NCBI GenBank assembly: GCA_020356065.1
Contig: CP070632.1
Span: 58,665-122,664, forward strand
Direction: 5' to 3'
DNA from: Nitrospiraceae bacterium
Lineage (GTDB): Bacteria; Nitrospirota; Thermodesulfovibrionia; UBA6902
DNA: 64,000 nt
The notes beneath the pieces were generated by a model. That model worked only from the letters and a program-made list of their open reading frames with translations. It did no database searches and was not told where the DNA came from. Shown here piece by piece: positions 3,362-60,864 of the stretch. Within the stretch, counting starts at the first letter, position 1, and every line of letters starts with the position of its first letter. Made by a program: the position numbers and the translations under genes.

Positions 3362-4729
3362 ATGTCAAAAATCCTCGTTGTTGAAGACAAGACCGCAATG
3401 GCCCAGATGCTTAAGGAATCCCTGGAACTCGAAGGTTATGAAGTTATCACTGCAAGTGATGGGGCAGAGGGGATCAGGAAGATCAAAGAACGCAGTGCAG
3501 ATCTCGTTCTTACCGACCTTAAACTTCCCAAAAAGAACGGCATCGAGGTATTAAAGGCATCGAGGAATGAAAGCCCGCTAACACCGGTTATTGTGATGAC
3601 AGCGTATGGTTCGATAGAGACTGCGGTTAATGCAATGAAGCTGGGTGCGTATGACTTCATCACCAAGCCTCTTGATATTGACCATCTGAACCTGCTTATA
3701 GACAGGGCACTGAAGAACCAGAAAATTGTAGCGGAGAATTTATTACTCAAAGATGTACTTGCCGAAAGAAAAGGCATTCCCAACATAATCGGTAAGAGTC
3801 CCAGAATGCGTGACGTGGCTGATAACATTCAGAAAGTAGCGTCTGCGAGGACTACGGTACTGCTACTTGGTGAGTCAGGAACGGGGAAGGAGCTTTTTGC
3901 AAGGGCCATTCATGATCTGAGTTCAAGAAAGGACCATCCATTTGTACCGATAAACTGTGCCGCCATTCCGGGAGAGCTTCTTGAATCAGAACTGTTCGGC
4001 CATGAAAAGGGTGCCTTTACAGGCGCCACAGAAAGAAAGCTGGGAAAGCTGGAGATTGCTGACAGGGGGACGGTGTTTCTCGATGAGATCGGGGAAATGG
4101 AAATCTCTCTTCAGTCCAAGATGTTACGAGCACTTCAGGAGGGAGTTATTGAGAGAGTCGGCGGAACAGGTTCACTGAAAGTAGATGTGAGAATTATTGC
4201 TGCAAGTAATAAAGACCTTGAAGCAGCCGTGAATGAGAAAACGTTCCGGGAAGACCTTTATTACAGGTTGAGTGTGTTCCCCATAGTTATTCCTCCTCTG
4301 CGGGACAGAAAAGAGGATCTTCCGGCCCTGATAGAGCACTTCATTGCCAAATATTCGATAGAAATGAACATATCCGGAAAAGAGATCGGACCTGATGCCA
4401 TGAAGGTCCTGCATAGTTATTCATGGAAGGGAAATGTAAGGGAACTGGAGAATGTTATAGAGCGTGCAATGATCATAAGCGATACTGACCGGATAACAAA
4501 GAATGATCTCGGACTCATGCCTGCAAATCTTTCTGATGATGGACTCGCAGGAATATCAATGGAAGGAACGCTCGATGAGGCTGCAAAGGCTGCCTTAAGG
4601 ATAGTTGAGTCCCGAAGGATCAGGCATGCCCTCGAAGAGACCCATGGGAATAAAAGCAGGGCATCTGAGATTCTAAAAGTAAGTTACAAAACGTTACTGA
4701 CCAAAATCAAGGATTATAACATCGAATAA
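3362..4729 (+). CDS. σ54-dependent two-component response regulator, NtrC/AtoC family (REC-AAA+-HTH)
   Basis: Receiver domain with a D in 'LVLTDLKLP'. AAA+ σ54-activator motifs 'GESGTGKE' and 'GAFTGA'. C-terminal Fis-type helix-turn-helix. Confidence 0.85.
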
Positions 4730-4747
4730 AATGACAAATGTCAAAGC
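4725..4747. repeat. Second copy of the TAAAATGACA-N-ATGTCAAAGC palindromic motif, starting at the stop codon of the NtrC-like gene
   Basis: Seen directly. TGACA-AA-TGTCA at 4733-4744. Confidence 0.6.
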
Positions 4748-4839: not shown

Positions 4840-5706
4840 ATGTGGGTCTTCTACTCTCTTTTAACCGCATTTTCCCTTGCAACAAGTGATACCTTGACAA
4901 AACGCATGCTGGCCTCAAGGGACGAGTATTATGTTGCATGGGCCAGGCTGGTGTTTTGTCTTCCGCCTCTTGCATTGAGCTTTCTGTTTATCGAGATACC
5001 ATCGCTTGACAGAACATTCTGGGCTGCAACGTTCTGTGCACTTCCCCTTGAGATACTTGCCATAATTTTATACACAAAGGCCCTTAAAGTGTCTCCCATA
5101 AGTCTGACAGTCCCCTTTCTTGCTCTGACACCGCTGTTCCTGATAGGTATCTCATATATTGTCCTTGGAGAAAGAGTCTCTCTTTACGGCGGCATAGGGA
5201 TTCTTTTAATGGCTGCGGGCAGCTATGCTCTTAACCTTCATAAAATCAGCAGGGACCTGGTTGCTCCTTTTAAGGCGATATTCAGGGAAAAGGGCTCACT
5301 CCTGATGATAGCTGTGGCATTTATTTACAGCTTTACTTCATCTCTGGGTAAGCTTGCAATAGAGCATTCTTCGCCTGTTTTTTTCGGCAGCTTCTATTTT
5401 GTTCTTGTGGTGCTTTTTTTTACTCCGGTTGCCATTGCCCGAAGCAGTGAACGGCTGGTGATTTCCAGACAGGATATAACGCCGCTTTTATGTATTGGCC
5501 TTTCGTATGCAATGATGATTATTTTTCATATGATTGCCATAAGCATGACCCAGGTCTCATACATGATCTCGGTGAAGCGCATGTCTCTCTTCTTCAGTAT
5601 ATTTTACGGCTATCTGATTTTCAAGGAAAAGAATATAAGGGAACGGACCCTGGGAAGCATCATACTGTTTTCAGGATTTTTAATAATAGTCCTGGGAACG
5701 AATTAA
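4840..5706 (+). CDS. EamA/DMT-superfamily membrane transporter
   Basis: About 10 predicted transmembrane helices in two repeated halves, 288 aa. Confidence 0.55.
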   Translation: MWVFYSLLTAFSLATSDTLTKRMLASRDEYYVAWARLVFCLPPLALSFLFIEIPSLDRTFWAATFCALPLEILAIILYTKALKVSPISLTVPFLALTPLFLIGISYIVLGERVSLYGGIGILLMAAGSYALNLHKISRDLVAPFKAIFREKGSLLMIAVAFIYSFTSSLGKLAIEHSSPVFFGSFYFVLVVLFFTPVAIARSSERLVISRQDITPLLCIGLSYAMMIIFHMIAISMTQVSYMISVKRMSLFFSIFYGYLIFKEKNIRERTLGSIILFSGFLIIVLGTN

Positions 5707-5744: not shown

Positions 5745-5816
5745 GTTATTCCCGCTGTTTTAAGCGGGTCTCCGCTAAAGGTCGCTTCGACTCGATCAAC
5801 AGACCTCGGGAATGAC
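5745..5816. repeat. Intergenic repeat copy A. Termini GTTATTCCCGCTG ... CCTCGGGAATGAC are inverted repeats, and the core is the reverse complement of TCGAAGCGAC.
   Basis: Related to 9206-9318 and 37905-37962 by shared termini or core. Seen directly. Confidence 0.4.
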
Positions 5817-5896
5817 ATTGTTAAACCATATTGTGTATGCTGAATATTTACTCATACAAACGTTGATAGAATTATGAATTTAAATCATTCAATACA

Positions 5897-7102
5897 ATGC
5901 CCAAAATCATAGCTGACTTGCATATTCACTCCGAATTCAGCAGGGCTACGAGCAGGGAGATGAATGTCGAGGTGCTTGCATTATGGGCCAAAAAGAAGGG
6001 CATTAATTTAATAGGCACCGGTGACTTTACCCATCCCGGTCATTTCTCGAACTTGAAAAAATCTCTTGAGCCATCCTGCAGCGGTCTCTACTCAATACCA
6101 TCGGAACCTTCGATTTATTTCATGCTGTCAGCCGAAGTCAGCAGCATTTACAAACAGAAGGGAAAGGTGAGAAAGATCCACAACCTCATTTTTGCTCCGG
6201 ATTTTGACATTGCGGAAAAAATAAACGTTGAGCTTGACAGGCGTGGAAATATTTCATCTGATGGGAGGCCCATACTGGGTATATCTGCCAGGGAACTTCT
6301 GGAAATTGTACTGGATATCTCAGAGGACTGTTTATTTGTTCCTGCCCATGCATGGACTCCCTGGTTTTCGATTTTTGGCAGCAGGTCCGGTTTTGATTCC
6401 ATAGAAGAGTGTTTTGAAGAGTATTCGGAGTACATATATGCAATTGAAACGGGCCTGTCCTCAGACCCTGAAATGAACTGGAGGCTGTCCATGCTCGATA
6501 ATATAACCCTTCTCTCAAATTCCGATGCCCATTCACCTGCAAAAATAGGAAGGGAGGCAAATGTATTTCAATGCGATATGGACTATTTCGAGATTATGGA
6601 TGTGATCAGGAAGAAAGACAGAGAGAGATTTCTTTACACGATCGAGTTCTTTCCGGAGGAGGGAAAGTATCATTTCGATGGACACAGAACATGCGGCTTA
6701 TCATTTGCACCTGAACAGACGATTGAGAATGACTTTCTCTGCCCGGCATGTAAAAAGCCGTTGACAGTTGGTGTGATGAGCAGGGTTAATGAACTTGCTG
6801 ATAGACGTCAGGGATTTGTTCCTGATAATGCCGTGCAAACAAAACACCTGGTCCCATTGCAGGAAATTATTTCCGAGGCATACAGCGTAGGTGTTAACTC
6901 AAAAAAAGTGAAGAATGAATATGAGAAGATTGTTTCAACCAGCACGGAATTTGAAGTGATGTTGGACCTGACGGTGGATGAGCTACACAAGATAACAGAC
7001 AGGAAGATAGCTGAGGGGATATTAAAAGTTCGAGCGGGCGATATGTCCATTATACCGGGATATGATGGCGTTTTTGGGAAAGTATCTATTTTTTCAGATT
7101 AA
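5897..7102 (+). CDS. PHP-domain phosphoesterase with C-terminal zinc ribbon; endonuclease Q (EndoQ)-like, COG1379 family
   Basis: 'DLHIHSEFSRA', 'GTGDFTHP', 'PAHAWTPWFS', 'LSNSDAHSPAKIGRE' and 'GKYHFDGHRTC...CPACKK' match the PHP plus Zn-ribbon architecture of archaeal and Bacillus EndoQ. Recalled from memory, not searched. Confidence 0.5.
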   Translation: MPKIIADLHIHSEFSRATSREMNVEVLALWAKKKGINLIGTGDFTHPGHFSNLKKSLEPSCSGLYSIPSEPSIYFMLSAEVSSIYKQKGKVRKIHNLIFAPDFDIAEKINVELDRRGNISSDGRPILGISARELLEIVLDISEDCLFVPAHAWTPWFSIFGSRSGFDSIEECFEEYSEYIYAIETGLSSDPEMNWRLSMLDNITLLSNSDAHSPAKIGREANVFQCDMDYFEIMDVIRKKDRERFLYTIEFFPEEGKYHFDGHRTCGLSFAPEQTIENDFLCPACKKPLTVGVMSRVNELADRRQGFVPDNAVQTKHLVPLQEIISEAYSVGVNSKKVKNEYEKIVSTSTEFEVMLDLTVDELHKITDRKIAEGILKVRAGDMSIIPGYDGVFGKVSIFSD

Positions 7103-7269
7103 TCGTGAAGCAACTAACCCGATAATAAACAAAAGGTTTTTCCTGAGAAGTCCGATAATATAGTATGATTAACTTGCCCCAGTGCAGTTAAATCGGATTA
7201 CATGCATTGCTGGTAATATAAAAAAGAAATATGTTACTCTTAGGGGAATCTAACTTATAGCGGGAGGAA

Positions 7270-9174
7270 GTGTATTTGTATAAAAGTATAGCAATATGGG
7301 TCCTGTTTGGCCTTATGATGATACTGGTTTTCAACCTTCTTGAAACGTCCAAACCTGATGAAGAGATGGTGTTTTCTGATTTTACGGCTAAACTTCTGCA
7401 GGGTGAAGTGGCCGAAGTAACCATCCAGCAGCCTGAAAATCTTATTATAGGAGTACTGAAGAGCGGAGAAAGATTTAAGTCCTATGCTCCTGATTATCCA
7501 GACCTTGTTACGGAGCTTCGCAGCAAGGGTGTCAGAATTACGGCCAAACCTGAGCATACCCCCTGGTATATGAGTGTTCTGTTCAATTTCGGGCCGATCA
7601 TACTTCTTGTATTTCTTTGGGTATTTTTCATGAGGCAGATGCAGGCAGGTGGCAACAAGGCACTTTCTTTCGGCAGAAGCAGGGCAAAGCTTGTTTCTGA
7701 TAAAGGTGTGAAAATAACCTTTACTGATGTGGCCGGTATTGAAGAGGCAAAGGAAGAAGTAACCGAGATTATCGAGTTTCTTAAAGATCCTCAGAAATTT
7801 CAGAAACTTGGCGGAAAGATTCCCAAGGGAGTCATGCTTGTGGGTCCACCGGGTGCGGGAAAGACGCTGCTTGCCAAGGCGATAGCCGGAGAGGCAGAGG
7901 TGCCTTTCTTTTCTATCAGCGGGTCTGATTTTGTGGAAATGTTTGTCGGCGTGGGCGCTTCAAGGGTAAGGGACCTGTTTGAGCAGGCAAAAAAGAATTC
8001 TCCCTGCATCATATTTATAGATGAAATAGACGCGGTTGGCCGCCACAGGGGAGCAGGTCTCGGTGGTGGTCATGATGAGCGGGAACAGACATTGAACCAG
8101 CTTCTGGTGGAACTGGACGGGTTTGCTCCAAATGAAGGTATCATAGTGCTGGCAGCTACCAACAGACCTGATGTGCTTGACCCGGCCCTGTTAAGGCCCG
8201 GCAGGTTTGACAGGCAGGTTGTTGTACCGCAGCCTGACGTTAAAGGCAGGCTGGAAATTATCAAAGTCCACAGCAGGAAGGTACCTCTTGAAGATGATGT
8301 TAACCTTGAGACTCTTGCCAGGGGCACTCCAGGTTTTTCCGGAGCTGATCTTGCCAATCTTATTAATGAAGCAGCTCTGCTCGCGGCCAGAAGGTCCAAG
8401 ACAAAAGTGGCAATGATTGATTTTGAGGATTCAAAGGACAAGGTCATGATGGGCAAGGAAAGAAAGAGCATGATCATTTCTGAAGAGGAAAAAACCAATA
8501 CAGCTTATCATGAGGCAGGACATGCTCTTGTTGCCAAACTGACACCCGGAACTGACCCTCTTCACAAGGTGAGCATAATTCCTCGCGGCATGGCCCTGGG
8601 CATTACCCAGCAGTTACCGATTGATGACAGATATACATATTCTAAGGACCATGTGTTAAATATGCTTGCGGTTCTTATGGGGGGAAGGGTTGCTGAAGAG
8701 ATATGTATGAATCATGTCACCACCGGAGCAGGCAATGATCTGCAGAGGGCGACAGAACTTGCCCGTAAAATGGTTTGTGAGTGGGGTATGAGTGACAAGA
8801 TGGGACCCCTTACATTTGGAAAACGGGAAGAGCAGATTTTCCTTGGTAAGGAATTTTCAAGGCACAAGGACTATTCTGAAAAAACCGCTGAGGAGATTGA
8901 TGGGGAAGTGACAAAAATTGTTGCTGAAAGATATGACTATGCAAAAAAACTTCTTCTTGACAATAAGGACAGACTTCTCAGGATTGCAAATGCGCTACTG
9001 GACAGGGAAACCCTTGATGCATCTGAAATAGATGATTTAGTCAGCGGTAAAGAGCTGGCTCCTTCAGGAAACGGGGATAATCCGAAAAAAGAAGAGAAAG
9101 CTCCATCAGACACAGTTGAAGCAGAAAAAGTAGATGAAGCGGCAGGCGAGTCATCAGATGACTCAAAAGCATAA
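7270..9174 (+). CDS. ftsH: ATP-dependent zinc metalloprotease FtsH
   Basis: Two N-terminal transmembrane helices. AAA Walker A 'GPPGAGKT'. Zn-binding 'HEAGHAL'. GTG start after a GGGAGGAAG ribosome-binding site. Confidence 0.95.
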
Positions 9175-21403: not shown

Positions 21404-21557
21404 AGCCAGGGAGGTAAGCTTTAAAAAAAGTTTTGAATTAGGCGCAATGCAAGTTAAAATGATCATTCTTAGCACTTCATCAAGGTATAATATGTATGCT
21501 TACGTACTGCTGTGATAGCCGCTCCCAAAACTTTTTTTAAAGCTTACCTCCCTGGCT
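21404..21557. mobile_element. MITE-like 154-bp element with perfect 32-bp terminal inverted repeats (AGCCAGGGAGGTAAGCTTTAAAAAAAGTTTTG) flanking a 90-bp core
   Basis: The left arm 21404-21435 is the exact reverse complement of the right arm 21526-21557. No coding capacity. It sits between aroA and cmk. Confidence 0.5.
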
Positions 21558-21594: not shown

Positions 21595-22992
21595 TCAATA
21601 CAAACTTTTCAGCAGTTCAGGAAACTGAGGGAAAGATGTATTGATACATTCCGTGTCCTCAATTATTAAGCCGCCTTCTGTAACCAGGCCCGCGACAGCC
21701 ATTGACATTGCGACTCTGTGATCACCGTGACTCTGTACGACGGCATGTCTTAATCTGTCTAATCCTGTAATGGCAAGGCCATCTTCAGATTCTTCAACGT
21801 GCACCCCTGTCTTCCGCAGTTCCATAGCCATTGATGCGATCCTGTCGGACTCCTTTACCCTCAATTCTGATGCCCCGGATATTCTGGTTACCCCTCCGGC
21901 TATTGCTGAAGCAGCACACAATACAGGAAATTCATCTATTGCCCTGAGAATGAGGTCTCCGCCGATGTCTGTTCCCATGAGTTCTGAATATCTGACGCGT
22001 ATATCAGCGACAGATTCGCCGGAAACTTCGTGTACATTATGGAGAGTTATATCTCCACCCATCTTCTGAAAGATATCAATTATGCCTGTTCTTGTAGGAT
22101 TAATTCCCACTTTTTTTATAACTATATCCGAGCCGGGCACTATCAGACCGGCAGCAATAAAAAATGCAGCGGACGAAAGGTCACCAGGGATGGTGATGTC
22201 AAATGGAGCCAGTCCCTTTCCACCCTGAATGCTCACTTCCAGGCCATCAATATTAATATCAGCTCCGCATGAGGTAAGCATCCTCTCGGTATGATCACGC
22301 GATTTGCCAGGCTCAATAACTGTTGTACAGCCTTCACAGTAAAGGCCTGCGAAAAGAATTGCTGACTTTACCTGTGCGCTGGCAACAGGGGAATGATATG
22401 TAATTGCAATCAGGTTACCGCCTTTAATAGTGAGAGGAGGCCTACCCCCTTTTTCAGAACTGATATGAGCGCCCATTTCAGAAAGCGGCTTAATGATCCG
22501 GCGCATTGGTCTTCTGAGAAGAAACTTATCTCCCGTAAGGACCGAAGTAAATGGCTGTGCTGAAAGAATTCCGCTCAGAAGCCTCATTGTTGTGCCGGAA
22601 TTACCGCAATCTATGTTATCCCGTGGAGCTGTCAGTCCTCTTAGTCCCTTTCCATTAATGATGATCCGGTCGCTGTCTTTATCATCTATGTCTATGCCCA
22701 TTTGGCGGAATGCTTTAAGGGTGCTTACGGGATCTTCAGCCTGCAGAGAGTTTCTGATGCTGCTTTTACCCTCGGCAAGGGAGGCCAGCATAATAGCTCG
22801 ATGGGAAATTGATTTGTCAGCAGGAGGTTTAATTTCTCCTTGCAACGGGCCTCTATGCCTGATACTAATCTGACTCAATGAGCTTTCTTGCCTCTTGTGC
22901 CTTGATAAATTCCTGTTCCAGGCCGGGCCAGTCAGAATTTTCAAACATCGCAATGAGAGCAGTGATGTGAGAAGAGAACTTTTTAAGGACAT
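21595..22992 (-). CDS. aroA: 3-phosphoshikimate 1-carboxyvinyltransferase (EPSP synthase)
   Basis: 'LQGEIKPPADKSISHRAIMLASLAEG' and 'NSGTTMRLL' EPSPS motifs. The annotated N-terminus overlaps tyrA by about 128 nt, so the true start is probably a TTG or other alternative codon near 22878. Confidence 0.88.
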   Translation of the reverse strand: MSLKSSLLTSLLSLRCLKILTGPAWNRNLSRHKRQESSLSQISIRHRGPLQGEIKPPADKSISHRAIMLASLAEGKSSIRNSLQAEDPVSTLKAFRQMGIDIDDKDSDRIIINGKGLRGLTAPRDNIDCGNSGTTMRLLSGILSAQPFTSVLTGDKFLLRRPMRRIIKPLSEMGAHISSEKGGRPPLTIKGGNLIAITYHSPVASAQVKSAILFAGLYCEGCTTVIEPGKSRDHTERMLTSCGADINIDGLEVSIQGGKGLAPFDITIPGDLSSAAFFIAAGLIVPGSDIVIKKVGINPTRTGIIDIFQKMGGDITLHNVHEVSGESVADIRVRYSELMGTDIGGDLILRAIDEFPVLCAASAIAGGVTRISGASELRVKESDRIASMAMELRKTGVHVEESEDGLAITGLDRLRHAVVQSHGDHRVAMSMAVAGLVTEGGLIIEDTECINTSFPQFPELLKSLY

Positions 22993-35665: not shown

Positions 35666-37666
35666 TTGAATATTATTTCCTATATCCTCATAAATCTGCT
35701 GCTTTTTTCTTCCTGGTACACATTCCTATTTAACAAGAGGGGATTCATACCTTTTGTTGACCGGCTCATTGGGACTTCTGTATTTGCCCTGACACAGATA
35801 ATATTGACTGAAATGTTCCTTGGGGTTTTATTTAAAGCACTCTACAGTTCAAGCCTGCTGTCTCTTAATCTGATTATATCCATGACAGTATTGACATATT
35901 CCCTCCGCTTCGGGAGTGTCACTGCAGGAACTCCTCTTTCAGTTTATATAATATCGGTCTTTGTTGAGCTGGGAGAAAAGAGCAAACGGTTTTTCAGTAT
36001 CATTGGCAATGACATTATATTAACTTTAATATTCAGTCTTTTTTGCATTTTAATCGGCTGGATGATTTTCATTGCATATCTTTTCCCTTCGTATACGTGG
36101 GATGCTCTGTGGTACCATCTCCCGATAGTCGGGTATATCATGCAGAATGGAGCTGTCCAGGAGCTTGCCAACAACTCATTTATAGAGCAGTTTATAAATA
36201 TTTTTCCGAAAAACATAGAGTTGTTCTTCCTCTGGAACATAATATTTCTTAAAAGCGATGTCTTGATTGATCTGAGCCAGATGTTATTTACACTGGTCGG
36301 GGTATTAGCAGTGTTCAGTATGGCAATAAAACTTGAAATTCGGGAAGAGTACGCTATGTACGCTGCTTTATTGTTTTTCTTTACACCGGTTATTATTCTA
36401 CAGTCCACAACCAACTATGTAGATATTGCTATTTCTGTTTTATTTCTTGCCGCCCTGAATTTTTTAATCAGCAACTGCGAGCTGACGTCCTGGAACAGTG
36501 TGATGGTAATTAACAATATTAAGCAGAGAAAAATGTTTCTGCTTCTGGGAGGACTGACTACAGGCATACTGCTTGGTGCAAAGGGATCAGGCCCGTTGTT
36601 CCTTGTCATACTCTCTGCACTGGTCATGATACAGAAAGTAAGGAAATATATGGCTTATACTCGGAATCCGGACATGTTAAAGGAATACATAGCCCGGAAA
36701 GTTATGAAATCATATCTCATATATTTTATTGTCCCGGCTGTCATGATGGGAGGGTACTGGTATATGAAGAACTGGGTTTTATATGACAATCCGGTATATC
36801 CAATGGATGTGTCAATCATGGGCAAGGTATTGTTCAAGGGTTTATATAAGGATATGATTGAGCCGGTCCCGGATACCATTAAAAAGCTTTCTTTCTTTGC
36901 AAGACCAATATATGTCTGGATGGAACATATTGAATTTTATTTATATGATTCCAGGCTCGGCGGTTTGGGACCCATATGGTTTATTCTTTTTATTCCCAGC
37001 CTGGTTTTTTCAACTTTACATGCTCTGAAAAACAGAAAATATCAATTCCTTGCTGTTGTGGCTATTATTATGACAGGTTTTTTTATCTATCCACGACACT
37101 GGACGCCAAGATATGTAATATTTATTGTAGGACTGGGTGCGCTGTCATTTGCATATATTATGGACTTCTTTTATGTTAGAGACAGAATAATCAGACTAAT
37201 CGTGCTTTTGCTTACCGCATATACATTTTTAACGGTCAATTCCCCGTGCGTTACTCCTGCACAAATTAAACATTTCGTCAATCTTCCTGCCAGTGAAAGG
37301 ACGATTGCGCGTCATGCTCCATATAATATAGATATACATGCCCGGCAGGAATACGGACACTGGATCTGGATAAGTGATAACATAAAGACAGGTGAAACTT
37401 TGGCCTATACATTTGAACCATTGTTCCTCTCGCCATTATGGAACAGCGGATTTTCAAACTCTATTATATATATTAAAGCAGAATCATATAATGAATGGTT
37501 AAAGGATCTGGAGATGAACATGGTCTCATATGTACTTGTAAGAACAAAATCTAAAGAGGACAAATGGGTAGAGGCCAGTTATTCCCTTATCTGGATGGGG
37601 ATGAGGGAAAGGTTTAACGTTGAATATGCTGACGATCATTACAAAATCATAAGGTTTTTAAAGTGA
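35666..37666 (+). CDS. Large polytopic membrane protein, putative GT-C-fold glycosyltransferase (PMT/ArnT/YfhO-like)
   Basis: At least 11 transmembrane helices followed by a roughly 150-aa C-terminal soluble domain. Paired with a DPM1-like GT2 downstream. Assignment is by architecture only. Confidence 0.35.
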   Translation: MNIISYILINLLLFSSWYTFLFNKRGFIPFVDRLIGTSVFALTQIILTEMFLGVLFKALYSSSLLSLNLIISMTVLTYSLRFGSVTAGTPLSVYIISVFVELGEKSKRFFSIIGNDIILTLIFSLFCILIGWMIFIAYLFPSYTWDALWYHLPIVGYIMQNGAVQELANNSFIEQFINIFPKNIELFFLWNIIFLKSDVLIDLSQMLFTLVGVLAVFSMAIKLEIREEYAMYAALLFFFTPVIILQSTTNYVDIAISVLFLAALNFLISNCELTSWNSVMVINNIKQRKMFLLLGGLTTGILLGAKGSGPLFLVILSALVMIQKVRKYMAYTRNPDMLKEYIARKVMKSYLIYFIVPAVMMGGYWYMKNWVLYDNPVYPMDVSIMGKVLFKGLYKDMIEPVPDTIKKLSFFARPIYVWMEHIEFYLYDSRLGGLGPIWFILFIPSLVFSTLHALKNRKYQFLAVVAIIMTGFFIYPRHWTPRYVIFIVGLGALSFAYIMDFFYVRDRIIRLIVLLLTAYTFLTVNSPCVTPAQIKHFVNLPASERTIARHAPYNIDIHARQEYGHWIWISDNIKTGETLAYTFEPLFLSPLWNSGFSNSIIYIKAESYNEWLKDLEMNMVSYVLVRTKSKEDKWVEASYSLIWMGMRERFNVEYADDHYKIIRFLK

Positions 37667-55479: not shown

Positions 55480-57597
55480 ATGAGTGTATGGAATGATATA
55501 AGGCATGATTTTAAAACTGTTTTTACCATGGATCCTGCTGCCAGGAGCAAGGTTGAGGTCATTATCTCCTATTCAGGATTTCATGCTATAGTTTTTCACA
55601 GGTTAAATCATTACCTCTGGAATGCCAGGATACCCATACTACCCCGTTTTTTTTCGCAGGTAGCAAAGATATTTACCGGTATAGAGATACATCCTGCTGC
55701 AAAGATTGGCCGTGGGTTTTTCATAGACCACGGGATGGGTGTGGTGATAGGTGAGACTACGGAGATAGGAGAAAACTGTCTGCTGTATCAGGGAGTGACT
55801 CTTGGGGGTACGGGCAAGGAAAAGGGAAAGAGACATCCTACCTTAAAGAATAATATCGTTGTTGGCACCGGAGCAAAAGTGCTCGGGGCGATTACCATTG
55901 GAGACAACGTTAAAATAGGGGCCAATTCGGTTGTGCTTCATGATGTTCCCAAAGACTCCATTGTGGTAGGAGTGCCTGGAAGGGTCATTAAGAAAAAGGT
56001 TGTGAAGATGTTTGAAGATGGTCCGGTTGAGATGCTTGACCATGTTCATATTCCTGACCCGGTCGAAGATAAGTTTGAAAAGCTGAATAACATTATTCAT
56101 GAACTTGAAAGGAGAATCAGCACATTGGAAGGCAAGGGAGAGACCATAAAGGTTTATAACACAATGAGCGGAAAGAAAGAGGAGTTCATTCCCTTCACTC
56201 CGGGCAAGGTCAATATGTATGTGTGCGGGATTACCGCCTATGACGTATGTCACCTCGGACATGCAAGGAGCGCTATCGTGTTCGACATTATTAAGAGATA
56301 TCTGAGATACAGCGGTTATGATGTGACCCATGTGAGAAATATTACTGACATTGATGATAAGATTATAGCCCGATCAGCACAGGAGGGCATTTCCACTGAG
56401 GAAGTCGCCAAGAAATACACTGATGAATATTACAATGACATGGAGCTTCTGGGTGTCAGCAGGGCTGATATTGAGCCAAACGCTACTGACCATATCCATG
56501 AAATGGTAGAAACCATTAAAGGACTTATTGAAAAGGGATACGCATATCCGGTTGATGGTGACGTTTATTTTGAAGTGAGCAGGTTCTCCGGTTACGGGAA
56601 ACTGTCCGGGAAAAATATCGATGATCTCAAGGCAGGAGCCAGGGTCGATATTGATGAGAGAAAGAGGAGCCCTCTTGATTTTGCACTCTGGAAATCATCT
56701 AAGGAAGGTGAGCCATTCTGGGAAAGCCCATGGGGCAAGGGAAGGCCGGGCTGGCACATTGAGTGCACTGCCATGTCTTCAAAATATCTTGGGACAAGCT
56801 TTGATATACACGGCGGCGGAGCAGACCTCATATTCCCCCATCACGAAAATGAGCTTGCGCAGAGCGAAGCCTATTCGGACGAGCCTTTCGTGAAATACTG
56901 GATGCATAACGGTTTTATTACAGTGGACAAGGAAAAGATGTCTAAATCTCTCGGCAATTTCTTCACAATCAAGGAGATCTTAAGCAGATATGAACCCGAA
57001 GTAGTCAGATATTTTCTGCTCTCCGCTCATTATAGAAGTCCGATAGAGTTTTCTGACGTGCAGCTCAATGAAGCAGAGCTGTCGATTGACAGATACTATA
57101 CCACTGTCCTGCGGATCGATGATTTTCTGCAGTCAGAAAGTAATATTGACAGGATCACATCATCCGCTGAACTTGAAGACATTATGTCCGGATTCAGGCA
57201 CAAGTTCCATAATGCAATGAATGATGATTTTAATACTGCATCAGCACTGGGAATTATTTTTGAACTTATCAGAGAGGTAAACAGGTTTCTTGATTCCAAA
57301 CCTGCAGGTCAAAGGGCCAGGGACTTTGTTAAGCAGGCTTATGATCTGCTTGCTGAAATAGGCGGGGTGCTGAATATTTTTAATAAAACACCTGAAGAGT
57401 GGTACCGGGCGCTTATGAAAGTCAAGAAGATAGACATTACAGAAGATGATCTTCTCAAAAAAATTGATGCACGGCAGAATGCAAGGAAGAACAAGGACTG
57501 GTCTGCTGCGGATGATATAAGAAATGAACTCGCAGCAAAGAATATAATCCTTGAAGATAAAAAAGACGGGACTTCCTGGAAGATCAAGGTGGGTTAG
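55480..57597 (+). CDS. cysE-cysS: Fusion of serine O-acetyltransferase (CysE) with cysteinyl-tRNA synthetase (CysS) in one 705-aa ORF
   Basis: N-terminal 'IHPAAKIGRGFFIDHGMGVVIGETTEIG...LGGTGKEKGKRHP' matches the SAT hexapeptide domain. From about residue 225, 'MYVCGITAYDVCHLGHARS' (HIGH) and 'KMSKS' mark a class-I CysRS. Confidence 0.8.
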   Translation: MSVWNDIRHDFKTVFTMDPAARSKVEVIISYSGFHAIVFHRLNHYLWNARIPILPRFFSQVAKIFTGIEIHPAAKIGRGFFIDHGMGVVIGETTEIGENCLLYQGVTLGGTGKEKGKRHPTLKNNIVVGTGAKVLGAITIGDNVKIGANSVVLHDVPKDSIVVGVPGRVIKKKVVKMFEDGPVEMLDHVHIPDPVEDKFEKLNNIIHELERRISTLEGKGETIKVYNTMSGKKEEFIPFTPGKVNMYVCGITAYDVCHLGHARSAIVFDIIKRYLRYSGYDVTHVRNITDIDDKIIARSAQEGISTEEVAKKYTDEYYNDMELLGVSRADIEPNATDHIHEMVETIKGLIEKGYAYPVDGDVYFEVSRFSGYGKLSGKNIDDLKAGARVDIDERKRSPLDFALWKSSKEGEPFWESPWGKGRPGWHIECTAMSSKYLGTSFDIHGGGADLIFPHHENELAQSEAYSDEPFVKYWMHNGFITVDKEKMSKSLGNFFTIKEILSRYEPEVVRYFLLSAHYRSPIEFSDVQLNEAELSIDRYYTTVLRIDDFLQSESNIDRITSSAELEDIMSGFRHKFHNAMNDDFNTASALGIIFELIREVNRFLDSKPAGQRARDFVKQAYDLLAEIGGVLNIFNKTPEEWYRALMKVKKIDITEDDLLKKIDARQNARKNKDWSAADDIRNELAAKNIILEDKKDGTSWKIKVG

Positions 57598-60639: not shown

Positions 60640-60864
60640 AAGTGTCCTGAACACTCATTGCACACATACTGCATGCGAACGCATTTCCCGACTTCATTAT
60701 AAAATCGTCATGAAAATGACAAATATCAAAATCTAAATGTCAAATTATATCCCATTAACTTAATATCGACAAAATTTCTTAAATGAAAATTTTGTCATTC
60801 ATTTGGCATTTGAACTTTGACATTTGACTGCAAGATTGTATTTATATAAACACGAACTGAGACA

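Follow-up and report, generated by a model that had tools for sequence, protein, structure and literature searches.

A standalone endonuclease Q-family gene deposited under a helicase name in a Nitrospirota bacterium

How should the gene at 5897-7102 of a 64,000-nt stretch of Nitrospiraceae DNA (contig CP070632.1, positions 58,665 to 122,664; the whole stretch is called the window below) be read, when the protein identical to its product is deposited from a Nitrospiraceae metagenome-assembled genome (MAG) as 'DNA helicase UvrD' (P0001, 100% identity)? The original prediction, made from the letters alone, described the product as resembling endonuclease Q (EndoQ), with a PHP domain and a zinc ribbon, and regarded the placement of the gene as consistent with lateral acquisition. 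We found that the region is a genuine, intact, standalone and well-conserved gene of the known endoQ family, unremarkable except for two minor structural differences. Homology, residue conservation, fold, constraint and chromosomal context were established here. With a probability of about 0.8, we read the product as a functional, standalone and chromosomally resident EndoQ, i.e., a Zn-dependent base-flipping endonuclease that would nick the 5' side of uracil, hypoxanthine or an apurinic/apyrimidinic (AP) site and start excision repair independently of glycosylases. The value of the single gene is mostly corrective: a protein misnamed 'DNA helicase UvrD' is actually of the EndoQ type, and the gene appears to be vertically inherited in Thermodesulfovibrionia-like Nitrospirota.

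Identity of the product

In the open reading frame (ORF) check of the window, 5897-7102 on the + strand started with ATG, stopped with TAA (7100-7102) and encoded 401 residues. Residues were mapped onto EndoQ of Pyrococcus furiosus (PfuEndoQ) through the HMMER alignment, which gave the following features.

5897-7102, + strand: endoQ-like coding sequence, 401 aa; based on the ORF, the PfuEndoQ match, TIGR00375, the identical deposited protein and the ratio of nonsynonymous to synonymous substitution rates (dN/dS)
5897-6652, + strand: PHP catalytic domain, residues 1-252; based on the residue map onto PfuEndoQ, with a predicted local distance difference test score (pLDDT) mostly >90 in the model
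6653-6853, + strand: Zn-binding domain, residues 253-319; aligned to Pfu C249, C252, C268 and C271
6854-7099, + strand: C-terminal helical domain, residues 320-401, ending in GKVSIFSD; aligned to the Pfu domain and helical in the model

When all PDB chains were searched with phmmer, PfuEndoQ was the sole match (5ZB8, E=5.8e-50; DNA complexes 7K30-7K33, 3e-49), and the alignment spanned query residues 6-398 against residues 5-382 of chain 5zb8_A. The match was far beyond chance, and the motif series on which the original prediction had been built was located in full: DLHIHS at residues 7-12 (nt 5915-5932), GTGD at 40-43, PAHAWTPW at 149-156 (nt 6341-6364), SNSDAHSP at 207-214 (nt 6515-6538) and GKYH at 256-259, followed by CPAC at 282-285 (nt 6740-6751). 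The hidden Markov model (HMM) search that had been suggested as a check returned TIGR00375 as the only NCBIfam match (E=1e-57, profile positions 2-374 of 374) and no other PHP family. A local Pfam search gave only a weak, sub-threshold match to PHP_C, and the identical database protein carries PF27218, MJ0043_C (C-terminal domain), as a precomputed annotation.

The fold was consistent with the sequence matches. The AlphaFold2 model, made with a 45-homolog alignment, had a pLDDT of 91.3 and a predicted template modelling score of 0.90. Foldseek superposed it on 5ZB8 with template modelling (TM) scores of 0.87/0.88 at 2.6 Å over about 400 columns, covering all three domains of PfuEndoQ (PF1551, archaeal 'family 1'), namely PHP, Zn-binding and C-terminal helical, and on the dU-DNA complex 7K30 with TM scores of 0.83/0.85. 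Unlike PfuEndoQ, the query has short insertions at residues 68-70 and 87-93 and lacks the C-terminal PIP-box extension. The identification as an EndoQ-like PHP and Zn-ribbon protein was thus upheld by sequence, residue-level and fold evidence.

The deposited name and the weak PHP_C match would suit a protein of another PHP subfamily (histidinol phosphatase HisJ, a Pol X or Pol III PHP, YcdX or RNase AM) or a UvrD helicase. Against this, no HMM match to UvrD or to other PHP families was obtained, and the next PHP structures in Foldseek (PsfC, BAD_1165, RNase AM, Pol III alpha and YcdX) reached TM scores of at most 0.37 and covered the barrel only. Such membership was ruled out by the NCBIfam, Pfam and Foldseek searches together, and we give it practically no chance. 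The helicase name itself has an explanation. P0001 and many standalone relatives are deposited as 'DNA helicase UvrD' though they have no helicase domain; the UvrD/PcrA superfamily 1 (SF1) helicase domains (PF00580, PF13361) had no Pfam match in the 401-aa protein and were found solely in fused relatives. Because EndoQ-UvrD fusion proteins lie in the same cluster space, the label on the standalone proteins, which is wrong, appears to have spread from the fusions. Close relatives already carry the NCBI name 'endonuclease Q family protein'.

Catalytic residues, zinc ribbon and predicted reaction

In PfuEndoQ, the Zn ligands are H8, H10, E76, H84, H139 and D193, R114 and H195 are essential, and W144 forms the wedge (PMC5961232). 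All six metal ligands are identical in the query (H9, H11, E80, H95, H151 and D210), R124 and H212 correspond to the essential R114 and H195, and W156 corresponds to the wedge. The PHP ligands, R124 and H212 were invariant across 45 homologs. The lesion pocket of PfuEndoQ, whose residues were defined and mutated, consists of H139, T142, E167, L168, G169, L170, N191 and D193 (PMC5961232), and in a review of the DNA complexes S171 is also counted in the steric gate that excludes T and A (PMC8307549). T154, E184, G186, L187, S188 and N208 of the query, with H151 and D210, are identical to the Pfu residues. The single pocket change is T185 in place of Pfu L168, at a position that touches the base through the main chain only.

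Inteins of the LAGLIDADG/Hint type were found within the EndoQ module of P0123, P0125, P0136, P0142, P0170 and P0208, the last of which has two. In query numbering they are inserted after H151 (following PAH), after S188 (following ETGLS), after H212 (following SNSDAH) and before C285. Indispensable motifs are characteristic places of intein insertion, so the flanked residues can be read as functional; the positions fit a functional role of H151, S188, H212 and also the ribbon residue C285 in the bacterial subfamily.

From PfuEndoQ and from the EndoQ of Bacillus pumilus and Bacillus subtilis, which were shown to be active (PMC5961232, PMC6202378), we infer the metal content, substrate range, cleavage position and downstream partners of the query. 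The catalytic Zn2+ ions would be held in the PHP domain by H9, H11, E80, H95, H151 and D210, while Trp156 would wedge into the duplex. Uracil, hypoxanthine, probably xanthine, or an abasic site would be flipped into a pocket made up of H151, T154, E184-S188, N208 and D210, and the phosphodiester bond directly 5' of the lesion would be hydrolysed, leaving a nick with a 3'-OH and a 5'-phosphate. The nick would then start an excision or nick-translation repair pathway. Since a UvrD-type helicase is fused to, or encoded next to, many relatives, a UvrD/PcrA encoded by a gene of its own would plausibly unwind the DNA next. Endonuclease V (Nfi) and Mth212-type ExoIII are comparable as functional analogues only, in that they too make lesion-specific nicks at deaminated bases, with which alternative excision or nucleotide incision repair begins (PMC4357722, PMC8307549); unlike EndoQ, they have unrelated folds with no sequence similarity, and the cut of EndoV falls at the second bond on the 3' side of the lesion.

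Several observations weigh against this reading of the function. Identity to PfuEndoQ is low (33%), and the query scores 196.3 bits against TIGR00375, under the curated trusted cutoff of 326.6. The first ribbon ligand is His263, replacing Pfu Cys249, and no member of the bacterial subfamily with such an HxxC ribbon was found assayed in the literature, in which the characterised EndoQs are archaeal or from Bacillus. In the query, as in the relatives nearest to it (86-99% identity), the C-terminus is ...GKVSIFSD and a Q..LF extension is absent. In addition, no UvrD-like or other repair gene was found in the 64-kb window.

The profile score is not peculiar to the query. Among five proteins scored with TIGR00375, the cutoff was passed by the archaeal enzyme alone (430 bits); the Bacillales-type protein of Brevibacillus also failed (264), as did the query (196) and its relatives (180-200), so that failing the cutoff says little about EndoQ activity. 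We therefore classify the query as a member of the EndoQ family in the broad sense and do not call it a TIGR00375 equivalog. The features of the broad family are all present: full-length homology, the three-domain fold, the PHP ligands, the lesion pocket and the four ligand positions of the ribbon.

The ribbon of PfuEndoQ is of the C4 type, with C249, C252, C268 and C271 (PMC5961232). The query has H263-x-x-C266 and C282-x-x-C285, separated by the same 15-residue spacer as in Pfu.

6683-6685, + strand: H263, ribbon ligand (C3H) aligned to Pfu C249
6692-6694, + strand: C266, ribbon ligand aligned to Pfu C252
6740-6742, + strand: C282, ribbon ligand aligned to Pfu C268
6749-6751, + strand: C285, ribbon ligand aligned to Pfu C271

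The original prediction had named a C-terminal CxxC-type ribbon and had proposed comparing its cysteines with those of P. furiosus. The CPAC pair was there and all four ligand positions were kept, but the first pair is HxxC, with His at the first position. The same HxxC-15-CxxC arrangement was found in 119 of the 120 closest database clusters, in 85 of 87 genomic loci across many phyla (the other two are HxxH) and in 144 of the 150 best 50%-identity representatives, and H263, C266, C282 and C285 were invariant in the 45-sequence alignment. Judged from these sequences, His in place of the first Cys characterises this bacterial subfamily almost without exception, and H263, C266, C282 and C285 are predicted to bind Zn. 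The all-cysteine ribbon of the characterised archaeal and Bacillales types is absent from the query; since the first ligand is His, we filed the query in a bacterial subfamily separate from both.

Brevibacillus laterosporus WP_031414379.1 was used as a stand-in for the active Bacillus type in these comparisons. Like the query, it is a bacterial, standalone protein of about 390-400 aa in which the PHP ligands and the motifs SNSDAHS and PAH.TP are conserved. Unlike the query, to which it is 28-31% identical, it has a C4 ribbon (ACQGC...CPAC), a shorter spacer and an insertion after DLHIH. Its gene neighbourhood also differs from that of the query and reads NUDIX-endoQ-spoIIM-fur-xerD, which we take to match the B. 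subtilis yqxK locus, YqxK being the presumed ortholog.

The missing C-terminal extension can be placed in a similar way. A Q-x-x-[LIM]-F tail on an extension of 15-25 residues was present in 85 of 120 close homologs and 68 of 87 genomic homologs (e.g., GQKSLF, RQIGLF and EQLKLF; tail-bearing relatives include P0042, P0061 and P0102), and tail-less forms recur across clades, for example in the P0016 group and in members of the candidate phyla radiation (CPR). The tail agrees with the beta-clamp-binding consensus, which was already noted in bacterial EndoQ homologs; the archaeal equivalent is the PIP box, which binds PCNA and stimulates cleavage; the archaeal Methanomicrobiales are also without a clamp motif (PMC4858679). 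The clamp motif is therefore an accessory and not a universal feature of EndoQ. As the Q..LF tail is missing, the query probably works without beta-clamp tethering.

An in-frame ...NKQKVFPEK lies past the stop codon (QKVF at 7130-7141; window 7100-7160) and faintly resembles Q..LF. It was rejected as a relic of a clamp tail, because the region is unconserved in L003, a relative with 86% identity.

The absent tail, together with this faintly tail-like stretch, could nevertheless be taken as signs of a decaying remnant in which tail loss was the first step of inactivation. The comparison with the L003 ortholog, however, gave a dN/dS of 0.057 for the gene (PHP domain 0.044, Zn-binding domain 0.074, C-terminal domain 0.078), ratios that are approximate since dS was near saturation; the neighbouring EamA gene gave a comparable 0.084. 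This result indicated strong purifying selection in all three domains. With every catalytic residue intact, tail-less forms recurring in several clades and the downstream region unconserved in L003, decay is extremely improbable.

Distribution and fusion to UvrD-type helicases

The original prediction had called the bacterial distribution of EndoQ sporadic, and EndoQ was described as present in 'a limited number of bacteria' (PMC5961232, PMC4357722). An exhaustive HMMER search over 1.84 billion 50%-identity representatives gave 3,532 matches at E<=1e-3 and 1,029 at E<=1e-30, and a pattern scan of GTDB species genomes gave at least 580 confirmed relatives. The best 80 of these at least 580 include Thermodesulfobacteriota, Nitrospirota, many Patescibacteria/CPR groups, Omnitrophota, Methylomirabilota, WOR-3, Planctomycetota, Armatimonadota, Ignavibacteria and two Micrarchaeota MAGs. 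'Sporadic' was thus an understatement: bacterial EndoQ is a large family of more than 1,000 50%-identity clusters in many phyla, and is not confined to Bacillus and a few others.

By their length of more than 900 aa, 121 of the 150 best 50%-cluster representatives (P0121-P0270) were EndoQ-UvrD fusions, about 1,000-1,200 aa long. In the Pfam layout, the EndoQ module at residues ~2-415 precedes UvrD-helicase and UvrD_C domains, both of them complete. When one fusion was used for a search, more than 100 full-length 90%-identity clusters (P0273-P0391) were returned. Fusions occur in the cultivated Desulfosarcina widdelii, D. ovata and D. alkanivorans, where the deposited names say no more than 'DNA helicase' or 'UvrD-helicase domain-containing protein'. 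The GQxxLF motif is kept in the linker directly after the EndoQ module, and 69 of the 121 fusions have QxxLF at the end, too. Fusions such as that of D. widdelii ('DNA helicase', ~1,135 aa) share HxxC-15-CxxC with the query and are 47-55% identical to it over the module. Unlike these proteins with their GQxxLF linker and C-terminal UvrD/PcrA SF1 helicase, the query is standalone and tail-less, with no uvrD gene in the 64 kb. An intermediate arrangement, endoQ followed by an adjacent, separate uvrD-like gene, was seen in Peribacteria (L074, 1917-5145) and Nitrospirae (L078, 5583-8813).

By the Rosetta-stone argument, the frequent fusion suggests that UvrD-type unwinding follows EndoQ nicking, which gives a testable hypothesis for the steps downstream of the nick in bacteria. 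No description of the EndoQ-UvrD fusion was found in the searchable literature, although the classification of Shiraishi et al. 2017 may already note it. In that classification, EndoQ is reportedly sorted into families 1-3 'based on domain organization'. More speculatively, the clade with the HxxC ribbon might have had an ancestral 'nick and unwind' mode, in which lesion-specific 5' incision was coupled directly to a UvrD-type helicase, seen as fusions in Desulfosarcina and other Desulfobacterales and as neighbouring gene pairs elsewhere, and to the beta-clamp via GQxxLF at the module boundary, and of which the tail-less standalone forms would be a clamp-independent derivative; we put this forward as a possibility that has the odds against it. 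If true, 'nick and unwind' would be an excision pathway that needs no glycosylase and is widespread in anaerobic and uncultured phyla. The large HxxC subfamily and its UvrD fusions are more interesting than the single gene.

The same fusions would also suit a protein that kept the EndoQ fold for another job, as a nuclease partner of a UvrD-type helicase in nick or end processing or in restriction of foreign DNA that contains uracil, and whose lesion specificity was changed or lost. A full UvrD/PcrA helicase is attached in most of the best-matching clusters, the Zn ribbon differs from that of the characterised enzymes, and an antiviral role was proposed for Bacillus EndoQ in a review (PMC8307549). 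We nevertheless consider this account unlikely, because the residues with which pocket and wedge keep T and A out (Pfu H139, G169, S171 and W144) are all identical in the query, the EndoQ module had no PADLOC or PHROG match, the gene lies in a housekeeping neighbourhood and not in a defence island, and fusion to UvrD is equally expected for excision repair initiated by a nick. A repair endonuclease thus remains our reading of the query. Strong matches of the fusion protein to GajB and DRT were attributed to generic UvrD similarity and were not interpreted.

Chromosomal residence and the surrounding window

The gene was correctly placed by the original prediction between a transporter of the DMT type and ftsH.

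4840-5706: EamA/DMT transporter, upstream neighbour of endoQ
7270-9174: FtsH, downstream neighbour of endoQ

Farther upstream lie gatA, gatB and an NtrC-type sigma54 response regulator, and farther downstream folP, two pilin-like genes, RNase R and cobA/hemD. All surrounding genes are housekeeping genes, and no integrase or transposase was found among them. No tRNA or Rfam element was found near endoQ, and an Rfam search of the whole window gave no match.

Lateral acquisition, of endoQ alone or with the DMT transporter, had some grounds. An ancient transfer from archaea to bacteria was proposed in the literature (PMC5961232, PMC4858679). The middle of the neighbourhood varies, with EamA in the query and three other genes in its place in L002 and L004, and the neighbour-joining (NJ) tree holds two separate Nitrospirota EndoQ lineages. 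Composition, however, did not set the gene apart: its GC of 0.42-0.44 is similar to that of the flanks, and among 40 genes of the window it had a z of 0.00 for GC, a z of 0.95 for GC at third codon positions (GC3) and the 9th lowest codon-usage distance. The neighbourhood was conserved over a wide range of divergence. L003 is fully collinear (gatA-gatB-regulator-EamA-endoQ-ftsH-folP), with neighbours 82-90% identical; relatives at about 70% identity retain gatB-regulator-(three other genes)-endoQ; and in Thermodesulfobacteriota relatives at about 60%, gatA/gatB are still within 5 kb of endoQ. The L001 relative was without synteny.

The named matches at 63% identity or more were all Nitrospirota/Thermodesulfovibrionia, Deltaproteobacteria appearing from 62% downwards. 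In the NJ tree, which was drawn without bootstrap support and with taxon labels as deposited, the query was nested in the Nitrospirota clade, sister to the gatB-linked Thermodesulfobacteriota group. No relatives were found in 50,697 phage genomes or in IMG/VR, and the one match among 72,556 plasmids was on a 733-kb Brevibacillus replicon. Searches around endoQ found no flanking repeats. Composition, flanking repeats or tRNA, integrase or transposase genes, and patchy presence, which mark genomic islands and mobile cargo, all gave no sign of either.

The reading as a lateral acquisition thus did not hold, given the typical composition, conserved synteny, position within the Nitrospirota clade, and lack of mobile genes and phage relatives; a recent transfer is very improbable. 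The evidence instead indicates that endoQ is a long-resident, vertically inherited chromosomal gene of this Nitrospirota bacterium. An ancient transfer of endoQ between domains or phyla, which the literature proposes, may have taken place.

A second Nitrospirota EndoQ lineage, 52-55% identical to the query, was seen in the NJ tree (L058, L061, L067, L070, L073, L075, L078, L079, L082 and L084). It adjoins the UvrD-fusion clade, and in some of its members a uvrD-like gene lies next to endoQ or no more than 5 kb away. This lineage hints at a complex deep history of the gene.

The following features were located in the spacers around the gene.

5745-5816: GC-richer segment whose ends form a 10-nt inverted repeat, GTTATTCCCG / CGGGAATGAC (arms 5745-5754 / 5807-5816)
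5812-5841, + strand: candidate sigma70-like promoter, ATGACA-18-TATGCT, from a consensus scan in which the number of sites was not above that in shuffles
1660-1679, 4728-4747 and 60713-60732, + strand: copies of a 20-nt repeat, with an inverted partial copy at 60802-60826

Compared with L003, the spacer upstream of endoQ has kept a block at about 5795-5850 and diverged elsewhere, and 5812-5841, inside this block, is the predicted promoter of endoQ. Downstream, the block 7185-7245 (ATGCATTGCTGGTAATATAAAAAAGAAATATGTTACTCTTAGGGG) is nearly identical in L003, though the surrounding spacer diverged, and is probably the promoter or leader of ftsH. As ftsH seems to have its own strongly conserved promoter block, endoQ looks monocistronic.

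The original prediction had also named a repeat element upstream of the gene in a placement that it regarded as consistent with transfer. Searches at two scales found no repeat family in the upstream spacer of endoQ. The 10-nt inverted repeat, which occurs as a single copy in the window, is the sole repeat in the 190-nt upstream region and is not a signature of a mobile element; the interior of its segment differs by indels in the relative, and the 3' arm of the repeat runs into the -35 of the candidate promoter. The upstream intergenic region folded only marginally better than shuffles (z=-1.9), and with no Rfam match an RNA element was not claimed there.

The 'repeat element' was probably the 20-nt intergenic repeat AAAATGACAAATGTCAAAGC, which has a palindromic core, TGACAAATGTCA, and occurs in three copies in the window against 0.02 expected. 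Each copy lies just past a gene end, and the nearest one (4728-4747) is upstream of the DMT gene. No copy was found downstream of endoQ or in 88 related loci. The repeat may be an operator or a motif resembling repetitive extragenic palindromic (REP) sequences.

Other features were noticed elsewhere in the window. A perfect 32-nt inverted repeat, AGCCAGGGAGGTAAGCTTTAAAAAAAGTTTTG, with arms 90 nt apart (21404-21435 / 21526-21557), lies in the intergenic spacer upstream of the minus-strand gene for EPSP synthase (21595-22992). The ORF at 35666-37666 (+ strand) encodes 666 aa from a TTG start, has a low GC of 0.383 and gave no Pfam match at E<=1e-6. At 55480-57597 (+ strand), a cysteinyl-tRNA synthetase of 705 aa carries an N-terminal hexapeptide-repeat (acetyltransferase-like) region of about 230 aa, which is an unusual fusion.

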